Shown one piece after another: positions 29,201 to 32,200 of a stretch of 38,462 bases of DNA; position 1 is the first letter of the stretch; each line of letters opens with the position of its first letter. The stretch is from a bacterium (lineage in GTDB: Bacteria > Babelota > Babeliae > Babelales > JAUWHS01), in the NCBI GenBank assembly GCA_043818275.1, contig JBDRFY010000075.1, positions 1-38,462 of the forward strand. Reading direction: 5' to 3'. Position numbers: made by a program.

Positions 29201-32200
29201 TAAAATAAAAAGATTGAAATATTAAATAAAAGACCCTGAATCAAGTTTCCGTCTACGTTAAAACTTCGACGGACAGGCTAGGATGACCGTCATCGTGCTT
29301 GTCGACCGAAGCTTAGCGAAGGTTGAAACTTGATTCAGGGTCTCTGCTCTTAAAAATTATTAATTCTTTATAAAGGACAAAAATGACTGGTGAAGTAACA
29401 CTGGAAAAAATAGTATCACTTTGTAAAAGAAGAGGTTTTGTATTCCCTTCAGCTGAAATTTATTCCGGATTAAATGGTGTTTATGATTTTGGTCCATTAG
29501 GAGTTGAGCTTAAACAAAATATTAAAAAACTATGGCTTGAAAATATGCAAAAATGGCCGGAAGATGTTGTTCAGCTTGATGGCGCAATTTTAGGCCCAAA
29601 ACCTGTTTGGAAAGCATCTGGGCATATCGATAATTTTATTGATCCGATGGTTGACTGTCTAAATTGCAAAAAAAGATTTCGCGCGGATGAAATTGATTTG
29701 AATAAACCATGTCCATCATGTGGAGTAAAAAAATGGACTGAAGTTCGTAAATTTAATCTGATGTTTAAAACCGAAGTTGGCGCTGTAACAGGCCAAGAAA
29801 ATTTTGGTTATCTCAGACCAGAAACAGCTCAATCCATTTTTATCAACTTTAAAAATGTTCTTACCAGTACACGCGTAAAAATTCCATTCGGAATTGCGCA
29901 AATCGGTAAAGCTTACAGAAATGAAATTACACCAAAACAATTTTTATTCAGAATGCGTGAATTTGAACAAATGGAACTGGAATTTTTCTGCAAACCAGAA
30001 CAAACGGATAAATACTTTGACAACTGGGTTGAAAGAAGAATGCAATTTTACAAAAATTTTGGTCTTGATGCTAAAAAAGTCAGAACGAGACCACATGCAA
30101 AAGATGAACTTGCCCACTACTCCAAATGCTGTATCGATGTTGAGTATGAATTTCCTTTTGGATGGAAAGAACTTGAGGGAATCGCAAACAGAACAAATTA
30201 TGATTTAACACAACACATAGAACATTCAGGCAAAGATTTGTCTGTTTTTGATGAAGAAACAAAAGAATCTTATGTACCACACGTTGTAGAATGTTCCGTT
30301 GGTGTTGAACGATTATTTTTAACAATCCTTTTTGATGCTTACAAAGAAGATGAAATAGATGGCGAGCAAAGAATTGTTTTAAAACTTGATCCAAAACTTG
30401 CGCCTGTTAAAGCGGCAATTCTTCCTCTTGTAAAAAAAATATCTGAACCAGCGCAAAAAATTTATGACTTTTTAAAAAGTAAAAATTATAAAATTCAATT
30501 TGATGAATCCGGTTCAATTGGAAAACGTTATCGACGTCAGGATGAAATCGGAACACCAGTGTGCTTAACTTACGATTTCGATTCTGAAAATGACAAAATG
30601 GTAACGGTAAGAAATCGCGACACATTAAAACAGGAAAGAATTGCAATTGATCAAATTGAAAATTATTTAGATAATTTATTGAAAAAATAAACGACTTCCT
30701 TGAATATTTTACATTTTTAACACTTAGAATTGTAACCCACCCGCTCGTCCTAAGCGTAGTCGAAGGATCACGAGCGGTACGCTAAATAAAATAATATTAT
30801 GACTTTTTACGTTTACATGCTTAGATGTGCTGATGGCTCATTTTATATTGGTCATACAGATAATCTTGAAAATAGAAGATATGAACATCAAATGAAAAAA
30901 TATAACGGTTATACAAGTACTCGCTTGCCAATTCAGCTAGTATTTCATGAAGCTTTTCCAACCAGAGATGAAGCTTTTGCCGCAGAAAGGAAATTAAAGG
31001 GTTGGATGCGAAAAAAGAAAATTATTTTAATTAAATATGGTTGGGAAGGCTTTGTTAAAAACAAATGTAAATAATTTTAGCTTTTTAGTTTACCGCTCGA
31101 TATCCTTCGACTACGCTCAGGACGAGCGGGTGGGGATAAAATTCTAAGAAATATATTAAATTATATTGCGCTCATCCTGAGTAAAGCGTAGCGAAATCGA
31201 AGGAAGGACGAGCGGGTGGATTTAAAATTCTTAAAATTTAAACGAATGATCATAACAAATTAATATTAAAATTATAAAAAAAAGAAATATGAAATTTATA
31301 AGAAAATTTTATGACTGGTTGGGAGAAAAAGTAAAATCACCAAACGCGTTAATCTGGCTTTCGGTTCTTTTTTTTATTGAAGCAATTTTTTTCGTTCCTG
31401 TTGATCCATTATTAATTTTATTTTGCCTAAATAATTATAAAAAATCTTTAAACTACGCACTCATTGCAACTGTTTCTTCTGTTGCCGGAGGTGTAACCGG
31501 TTATTTTATTGGCGCTTTCATGTGGGAAAGTTTAGGCGTAAATTTAATAACCTGGATAATAAGTGAGCAAGCTTTTAATAATGCGATTATCAAATATAAA
31601 CTATACCAAAACTGGGCTGTATTTATTGCGGGATTTACTCCGTTGCCATATAAAGCAATAACTTTATCTGCCGGTTTTTGCAAATTAAGTTTACCGGCCT
31701 TTATTTTATTTTCTTTTCTTTCCAGGGGAGCCAGATTCTTTTTATTGGCAGGAATAATTAAAATCGGTGGAGAGAAAATCCACTTTTTTATTGACCGCCA
31801 CTTTAACCAATTAGTAGTCTTGTTTACGTTGTTACTTGTAATAAGTGTCTGGATGTTAAAATTTTAAAAAACAAGGCCACATTATGAATCCTAAAATTGC
31901 TGACGTTTCTCCAGGAAGAATTTTAATTGCTTCATTTTTATTTGTTATAAGTTTGGGAACATTTCTTTTAAGTTTGCCCGCAAGCCGGGTGGTTAACATT
32001 CCATTTATAGATATTCTATTTACAGCTGCATCAGCAACATGCGTTACCGGACTTCAGGTTGTTCCAATTTATTATTTTAGTTTTTTTGGCAAATGCGTAA
32101 TTTTAAGTCTTATTCAAATTGGCGGACTTGGATTAATGACATTATCGTTCTTTTTAGTTTCATTAATTTTAAGAATGCGTTTTTCAACCCAGGTTATTGC

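Follow-up and report, generated by a model that had tools for sequence, protein, structure and literature searches.

The window, i.e., the whole stretch of 38,462 nt that was analysed (contig C75 of the 1.33-Mb genome under study, G000), contains a small GIY-YIG nuclease gene between two inverted copies of a hairpin repeat, together termed cassette, which lies with a third hairpin between the host genes glyQS and dedA, and a second hairpin cluster between murB and tgt:

25347..25905, no strand assigned: second cluster of the cassette hairpins between murB and tgt, with one gene-less doublet and nested hairpins of another family among its members
29383..30690, plus strand: glyQS (glycyl-tRNA synthetase), host gene left of the insertion, so named from its Pfam domains tRNA-synt_2b and HGTP_anticodon
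30691..31288, no strand assigned: insertion of 598 nt that comprises the cassette and the third hairpin, located between glyQS and dedA and recognised from the gap sizes in other genomes
30723..30798, plus strand: left arm, with hairpin unit 30742-30776
30799..31074, plus strand: gene for the GIY-YIG nuclease P0001, 91 aa, single-domain, with Y6, Y16, R26, H30 and E63 present
31072..31148, minus strand: right arm, inverted copy, with hairpin unit 31128-31094
31169..31225, plus strand: third hairpin, member of the cassette hairpin family (repeat-finder family D8)
31289..31867, plus strand: DedA/VTT-domain gene (PF09335), host gene right of the insertion

The P0001 ORF starts with the ATG at 30799 and encodes 91 aa rather than the 85 aa given in the genome-wide survey's note. 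PF01541 (GIY-YIG, E 2.4e-17) is its only Pfam domain, its structural model (pLDDT 90) has the GIY-YIG fold, and the best solved matches by sequence and fold are the UPF0213 proteins BH0048 of B. halodurans (1ZG2) and EF2693 of E. faecalis (1YWL); NCBIfam yielded no family. The gene does sit between inverted hairpin copies as that note had claimed: positions 30736-30779 and 31091-31134 are complementary at 41 of 44 nt (93%), a repeat finder gives 51 nt at 90%, and the arms remain similar from 30723 up to the start codon, a stretch of about 76 nt (54/76 ungapped). The left-arm unit consists of the tag CGCTCG, the stem TCCT/AGGA, an AAG..TCGA core and a C-GTA-G loop. Two features had not been mentioned before, namely the AAG that this arm carries where the hairpin family has GAG, and the third hairpin, which is flanked by two direct copies of the outer end of the right arm (31111-31154 and 31197-31240); on contig C90, a hairpin unit with the same layout shows a perfect 30-nt duplication of its own local variant. 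Promoter-like sites at the locus are at chance level (4 vs 3.5). Three public runs, each from a different study and one possibly the source sample itself, yielded contigs that match the joins of the cassette exactly (glyQS to arm to gene, gene to arm, third hairpin to dedA), and because these contigs cover the joins the assembly of the locus is sound. No RNA run is among those listed as containing the sequence. No empty allele that would point to excision was found among the public-run contigs, all of low depth.

In the same-genus genome G001, only 4 nt separate the glyQS stop from the dedA start, vs 598 nt in G000, and the two genes are linked in 16 of the 17 other dedA-bearing genomes (25 searched), where the gap measures about 2-108 nt and contains no nuclease gene. 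This makes the 598-nt block of G000 a derived insertion. The gap of 108 nt, found in G032, contains a degenerate hairpin of the cassette family, apparently an independent insertion.

Structure and distribution of the hairpin

The 4-bp stem of the hairpin is kept by compensatory change around the fixed tag CGYTCR and the core GAG..TCGA: in a test anchored only on these two motifs and comprising 114 units from 52 loci (units of one locus being related), all four stem pairs are Watson-Crick in 82 units, with six stem types, compared with a mean of 18.8 and a maximum of 30 after shuffling. The apical loop is GNA in 33 of 50 cores of G000 and CTTG or CCTG in most others, and among the distinct long inner loops seven of 15 triloops are GNA and two its complement. 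GNA and CTTG/CCTG loops are known for their high stability in DNA, and the GAG strand would gain stability from tandem G.A pairs; the ViennaRNA energies are similar on both strands.

The family has about 60 copies in G000. The exact core CCTRAGY-N2-14-TCGAAGG matches 57 times in the 1.33-Mb genome and not once in any of ten shuffles, and an nhmmer profile finds 74 matches, 56 of them at E<1e-4. These copies had been thought to occur mostly as doublets, but the proportion is about half (25 of 54 short-core units, with about 0.08 expected by chance and four more units stopping at contig breaks). When aligned, 14 doublets have 102-112 nt between their cores. Units in doublets match the 5' tag better than singlets do (8.3 vs 7.0 of 10, p 0.002, 25 vs 23 units), a somewhat circular comparison in that the tag consensus was picked by eye from G000 itself. 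A paralogue of the GIY-YIG gene on contig C18, for which flanking inverted repeats had been reported, is likewise bracketed by hairpins. A derivation of the doublets from the cassette by internal deletion was considered and rejected: arm A compared with the gene start scores 10.6 of 24, a value reached by 140 of 654 ORF starts, and although two doublet arms seemed to line up with the start of the gene (16-17 of 24), the set of 14 as a whole does not exceed the nulls.

The intergenic location claimed for the hairpins applies to 44 of 65 cores, which lie outside ORFs of at least 120 aa although such ORFs cover 82% of the genome; the remaining 21 lie inside. A mostly intergenic position would suit RNA elements, i.e., terminators, mRNA stabilisers or autoregulatory sites serving the gene as well as other operons, but we consider this very improbable, as 30600-31350 holds no terminator-like site, no Rfam family covers the hairpin (nothing above one weak riboswitch match elsewhere), the loops are GNA triloops or CTTG/CCTG and not RNA tetraloops, those 21 cores fall within ORFs, and the insertion splits the tightly coupled glyQS-dedA pair. 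REPs, for their part, can act as RNA elements according to the accessible text of Di Nocera et al. 2013 (PMC3733652).

Empty sites and signs of movement

Comparison with G001 extends the insertion history beyond glyQS-dedA. The site of the C18 paralogue measures 75 nt there vs 633 nt in G000, the murB-tgt hairpin cluster is absent, murB and tgt overlapping in G001, and three of four doublet sites are 23-115 nt long where G000 has 264-358 nt, and other DNA occupies the fourth. Cassette and doublets are thereby shown to be recent, lineage-specific insertions at scattered sites, in a comparison that covers four of the 14 doublets and is polarised by outgroups at the glyQS-dedA site alone. G001 itself possesses a truncated, unbracketed gene copy and one core.

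Signs of movement are also seen in other genomes. In the phylum, 39 of 77 gene-bearing genomes hold 2-5 copies of the gene, and 16 of the 150 matches listed have internal stops. A neighbour protein is common to only three of 465 locus pairs. Dispersed copies in G028, G091, G145 and G162, 85-88% identical over 373-605 nt, share the cassette alone, with no transposase in the common part. Moreover, five of the 56 bracketed loci carry long direct duplications of non-hairpin flanking DNA, aligned over 22-126 nt and in one case perfect over 75 nt. These five were chosen by eye from 14 above the 99th percentile, of which the remainder are hairpin copies, AT-rich or tandem; some bracketed loci have long inverted extensions. 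The cassette between glyQS and dedA in G000 shows no host-DNA duplication at its flanks, and a supposed decayed duplication of the glyQS end behind the insert was discarded with a score of 18, equal to background.

These patterns bear on a possible domestication of the enzyme. It might cut the hairpin as an Ssn-like ssDNA restriction activity and yet be kept for a host job, such as trimming incoming or exposed ssDNA or modulating recombination, with host recombination spreading the hairpins and the enzyme's part in this being incidental. In Neisseria, SsnA lowers the integration of NTS-bearing transforming DNA (accessible parts of PMC11893778), and in G000 the doublets are conserved in length and in interior motifs, their units being nearer the consensus than singlets. 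Nevertheless, a gene that is patchy (77 of 251 genomes), non-syntenic, multi-copy and often broken, and that persists in G001 as a truncated, unbracketed copy beside one core, makes such a host role unlikely.

Pairing of gene and hairpin across genomes

The phylum survey comprised 251 genomes, with the gene called at E<=1e-12 and present in 77. At least 20 exact cores occur in 40 of the 77 gene-bearing genomes vs seven of the 174 others (medians 23 vs 0), and of the groups in which a contrast is possible, 15 of 18 genera and 10 of 11 families have the higher core numbers in their gene-bearing members. In a second survey of 121 genomes from the alphaproteobacterial family of G252 (locus L160, Sphingopyxis witflariensis), at least 20 cores were counted in 14 of 39 gene-bearing genomes vs one of 82 others. 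Exceptions exist on both sides: 37 of the 77 gene-bearing genomes of the phylum have fewer than 20 exact cores and 15 fewer than three, 23 of the 174 gene-less ones have at least ten, and 11 of the 39 gene-bearing genomes in the G252 family lack any core. All these counts come from incomplete genomes and from exact patterns that miss stem variants, and the p values of the association overstate because kin are not independent. Y1 transposases, the only alternative enzymes compared with hairpin load, have no relation to core count (16/87 vs 31/164 genomes, OR 0.97), and a hairpin unit lies within 300 nt of none of 35 Y1 loci and none of 17 dedA loci, compared with 26 of 31 nuclease loci. This supports a hairpin load that follows the GIY-YIG gene and not the Y1 transposases.

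Bracketing was surveyed at 70 loci of close homologues whose flanks are complete, after 12 near-duplicates had been dropped; 56 were bracketed (score of at least 33) and 14 were not, with off-site control maxima of 15-29, and one of 36, among the rows listed. One homologue (locus L340) belongs to Altererythrobacter fulvus, a cultured non-pathogen. The hairpin is also present in Chloroflexota, Alpha-, Beta- and Gammaproteobacteria and others. Searching from the repeat instead, a nuclease was found near two of 128 hairpin-seeded loci and one of 130 NTS-seeded loci, the former two belonging to the cassette clade and the latter to the Ssn type; these numbers are small. Overall, the surveys show a specific pairing of gene clade and hairpin family that spans phyla and is widespread.

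It is against this pairing that a cargo role of the gene has to be weighed, in which another enzyme, a transposase or recombinase, moves hairpins and cassette, the gene being just a bystander with a hairpin on either side. Such passengers do occur: identical doublets on contigs C1, C30, C59 and C60 are carried by a MITE with its own terminal repeats, hairpin cores on C12 and C13 are cut off by another shared element, and eight near-identical cassettes in G256 are all contained in a larger IS that has a transposase-like ORF of 377 aa. In G257, too, the cassette is part of an IS. The eightfold copies in G256 had been considered as proof of self-mobility and were dismissed, since all eight close copies of the IS end carry the cassette and none of the IS was found empty. 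Many hairpins in genomes without the gene would fit cargo as well. However, Y1 transposases are neither associated nor adjacent, the dispersed copies have only the cassette in common, one gene clade is bracketed by one hairpin family across phyla, and the hairpin-seeded and NTS-seeded loci held each its own nuclease clade, few as these are, so that we regard cargo as decidedly unlikely.

A maximum-likelihood tree of 40 rows, drawn from the 90 of a quick tree, contains three groups: the cassette proteins (100/98), the SRM/NTS-flanked Ssn-type proteins (100/99, 10 proteins), and the housekeeping UPF0213 proteins with YazA and YhbQ (91/83). Cassette and UPF0213 proteins are sisters in the best tree (85/85), and a grouping of cassette with Ssn is not rejected (p-AU 0.265). 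What delimits the Ssn-type clade here is the sequence type together with flanks of SRM/NTS type, and the rows do not include SsnA of N. meningitidis; the N. lactamica genome G251 gave only a UPF0213-type and a UvrC-length match and no SsnA. YazA, YhbQ and four similar proteins have no hairpin brackets, and therefore no general COG2827 function follows, although one for UPF0213/COG2827 proteins at large had been suggested. A profile search returned 7178 representatives at E<=1e-10, a number not usable as family size because the search does not separate the clades. All 53 members of the cassette clade that were compared share Y6, Y16, R26, H30 and E63. Mutation of Y6, Y17 or E64 kills SsnA (accessible parts of PMC11893778), and judged by position, Y6, Y16 and E63 of the P0001 clade are the putative counterparts of these residues.

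Proposed mechanism and relation to known systems

Because gene and hairpins were recently inserted and co-occur across many bacteria, the enzyme probably recognises the hairpins and helps to spread them. We read the locus, with a probability of roughly 0.55, as a small selfish element of the form hairpin-nuclease-hairpin, about 430 nt long, accompanied by dependent gene-less hairpins and doublets that are spread through the enzyme. By analogy with SsnA, the protein is very likely a hairpin-specific ssDNA nickase, which would bind the GAG strand of the hairpin when the DNA is single-stranded (on the lagging strand, during transcription or in an extruded foldback) and would nick beside it, either 5' of the tag or at the CCT/GAG junction, at which the local duplications stop. 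GIY-YIG domains are not known to carry out strand transfer, and for this reason an indirect spread is proposed. The nick would leave a 3'-OH, which host repair or replication could extend with template switching onto another copy, thus writing a hairpin, a doublet or the whole cassette into the new site and producing variable direct or inverted duplications instead of a fixed target-site duplication. We lean towards such copying from another element during nick repair as the process that spreads hairpins, doublets and cassettes. In a wider and more tentative proposal, to which we give slightly less than even chances, small single-domain GIY-YIG nucleases would be the engines of a whole class of transposase-free mobile DNA in bacteria. 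Each of several clades (Ssn/cd10448, the UPF0213-related cassette clade and a tRNA-linked clade) would nick an ssDNA hairpin of its own, which host repair would then copy.

The genome-wide survey's note had described a REPIN/RAYT-like system with a GIY-YIG enzyme. A specific and widespread gene-hairpin pair, lineage-specific insertions and a hairpin load that follows the gene hold up, whereas mobilisation by the nuclease does not stand on the same footing, near-identical copies having been found only as passengers of other elements (the doublet in a MITE in G000, the cassettes in an IS in G256).

The concept had also been presented as new, but Chenal et al. 2025 (PMC11893778), in the accessible parts of that paper, already describe NTS-ssnA-NTS loci and hairpin-specific ssDNA cutting, and liken these loci to IS200/IS605, REP/BIME and domesticated transposases. 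There, Ssn is defined as cd10448, and SsnA cuts ssDNA beside the hairpin but neither dsDNA nor RNA, its binding being specific to ssDNA with no binding of RNA. The cassette protein is similarly a single-domain GIY-YIG protein of less than 150 aa (91 aa; Ssn about 90-100 aa), its gene is framed by hairpin repeats with many genomic copies, and the catalytic Tyr, Tyr and Glu are in matching places. In contrast, the cassette proteins form a clade separate from the SRM/NTS-flanked Ssn-type proteins (100/98 vs 100/99), G000 has no SRM, NTS or dRS3 match, another hairpin flanks the gene, and this hairpin has a 4-bp stem with a GAG/TCGA internal loop where Ssn hairpins have a near-perfect stem; for the cassette, which is known here from sequence, there is in addition comparative evidence of insertion. 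Babela massiliensis is entered in that study with 0 SRM and no ssnA, and 12 of its 14 supplementary files contain no cd10456, UPF0213 or TCGAAGG.

Of the three REPIN characteristics taken from the accessible text of Bertels and Rainey 2011 (PMC3337134), two are found in the doublets, which had been regarded as the counterpart of REPINs. Like REPINs, they are inverted, have a preferred spacing, occur far above chance and are better conserved than singlets; each has a different spacer and folds as a long hairpin, and the enzyme gene is framed by the doublets' own repeat. Unlike in REPIN/RAYT systems, the enzyme is GIY-YIG and not an HUH/Y1 transposase (Y1 adjacent at 0/35 loci, OR 0.97), the gene is patchy, multi-copy and non-syntenic, and about a third of the cores lie in ORFs. 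CGTC REPs, as described in the accessible text of Di Nocera et al. (PMC3733652), are also 5'-tagged palindromes in dimers without an associated transposase gene; set apart by this description, the cassette hairpin lacks their CGTC tag, 8-9-bp stem starting with AT, 4-5-nt loop and CCA tail. The UPF0213 proteins (BH0048, EF2693, YazA and YhbQ) are the closest in sequence and fold and the sister group in the best tree, a placement that is not firm, but they form their own clade among housekeeping genes and are unbracketed, whereas the P0001 clade is non-syntenic. A MITE that descends from an autonomous element has an internally deleted gene as its interior, and no such origin from the cassette gene is detectable in the doublets. 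As for the fixed short target-site duplication of classical IS and MITEs, long, variable duplications are present at five of 56 loci and none of host DNA at the glyQS-dedA cassette, in data that contain no base-level empty allele.

A literature search, with most subscription papers and patents outside its scope, found no description of the pair of cassette clade and hairpin in work on SsnA, UPF0213/YhbQ/COG2827 or GIY-YIG proteins with REP-like repeats, nor any of six 15-16-mers of the hairpin core. In their accessible texts, Chenal et al. (PMC11893778) leave open whether Ssn-type loci move and what role homologues have outside Neisseria, and Di Nocera et al. (PMC3733652) what spreads REP-like repeats without a transposase. 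With a second enzyme-hairpin pair that has a defined, covarying target, both questions become testable using a 91-aa protein and a 35-nt oligo. If P0001 cuts, site-specific ssDNA nucleases would extend beyond cd10448 to a new recognition structure, and if it also drives the insertions, transposase-free repeat spread would be very common in small-genome and alphaproteobacterial lineages. A class of elements with GIY-YIG engines would, if true, explain REP-like families that lack a RAYT, and the cassette clade would then be the second group from which sequence-specific ssDNA nucleases can be obtained. Together, the cassette works like Ssn/NTS, looks like REPIN/RAYT and belongs to neither, and what is new here is the separate protein clade, a hairpin outside the SRM pattern and the comparative signs of movement, i.e., empty sites, dispersed cassette-only copies and occasional long flank duplications.

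Hairpin families within the window

The open reading frame of murB continues into the hairpin cluster that separates it from tgt, so that the last ~35 residues of murB are repeat-encoded, and in G001, a genome of the same genus, murB overlaps the end of tgt. Within this cluster, the loop of a main-family unit encloses hairpins of a second family, the GAAGCCTTGGCGAAG type.

Repeat-related features of the window:
24357-25451, murB
25361-25411 and 25855-25905, hairpins of the GAAGCCTTGGCGAAG type
27136-27319, inverted hairpin pair unlike the main family, between tgt and the Vut_1 gene
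34660-38462, repeat families D2, D11 and D15 within genes (repeat search of the window)

The motif of the pair between tgt and the Vut_1 gene also adjoins a Y1 transposase on another contig, C60 (L435), indicating that a Y1-associated repeat family is present in this genome as well. Judging by their motifs, we take the genes at the right end of the window to be ankyrin-repeat-like.

Interrupted units, doublet interiors and a MITE

Elsewhere in the genome, another shared sequence interrupts several main-family units at the CT in their core, and the end of one MITE, CTGTCCGAAG, surrounds at least three different hairpin interiors while itself being located inside a third hairpin family.

Sites of interruption and of the MITE end, by contig:
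Core-interrupted units: C12:3620, C13:35484, C65:14266, C20:140
MITE end CTGTCCGAAG: C30:6539-6800, C6:25393, C27:23398, C71:3800, C18:39013

The gene-less doublets (e.g., C13:1677-1832) retain an AT-rich interior of constant length together with the motifs TTATTG and TTACAATTCAATAA, despite divergence between copies, and this conserved interior is possibly a site for a host protein.

Insertions and related nuclease clades in other genomes

At the same glyQS-dedA junction, G032 (L258) carries a 108-nt hairpin insert upstream of dedA, apparently independent. At L018 1288-3258 (G256) and at L004, the hairpin-nuclease-hairpin cassette occupies non-coding 5' sequence of an IS, presumably ISAs1-like, which has a 377-aa transposase-like ORF; G256 contains eight near-identical copies of the cassette in this setting. 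At L059-L062, small GIY-YIG genes that are tRNA-linked and belong to another clade have hairpins similar to the GAAGCCTTGGCGAAG type on either side. The TGAG..CGAAG core of the main family recurs at L042 (1450-1790) in a hairpin that brackets a member of the Ssn-type clade, the SRM/NTS-flanked small GIY-YIG proteins, and this shared core may link the Ssn-type and main target families.
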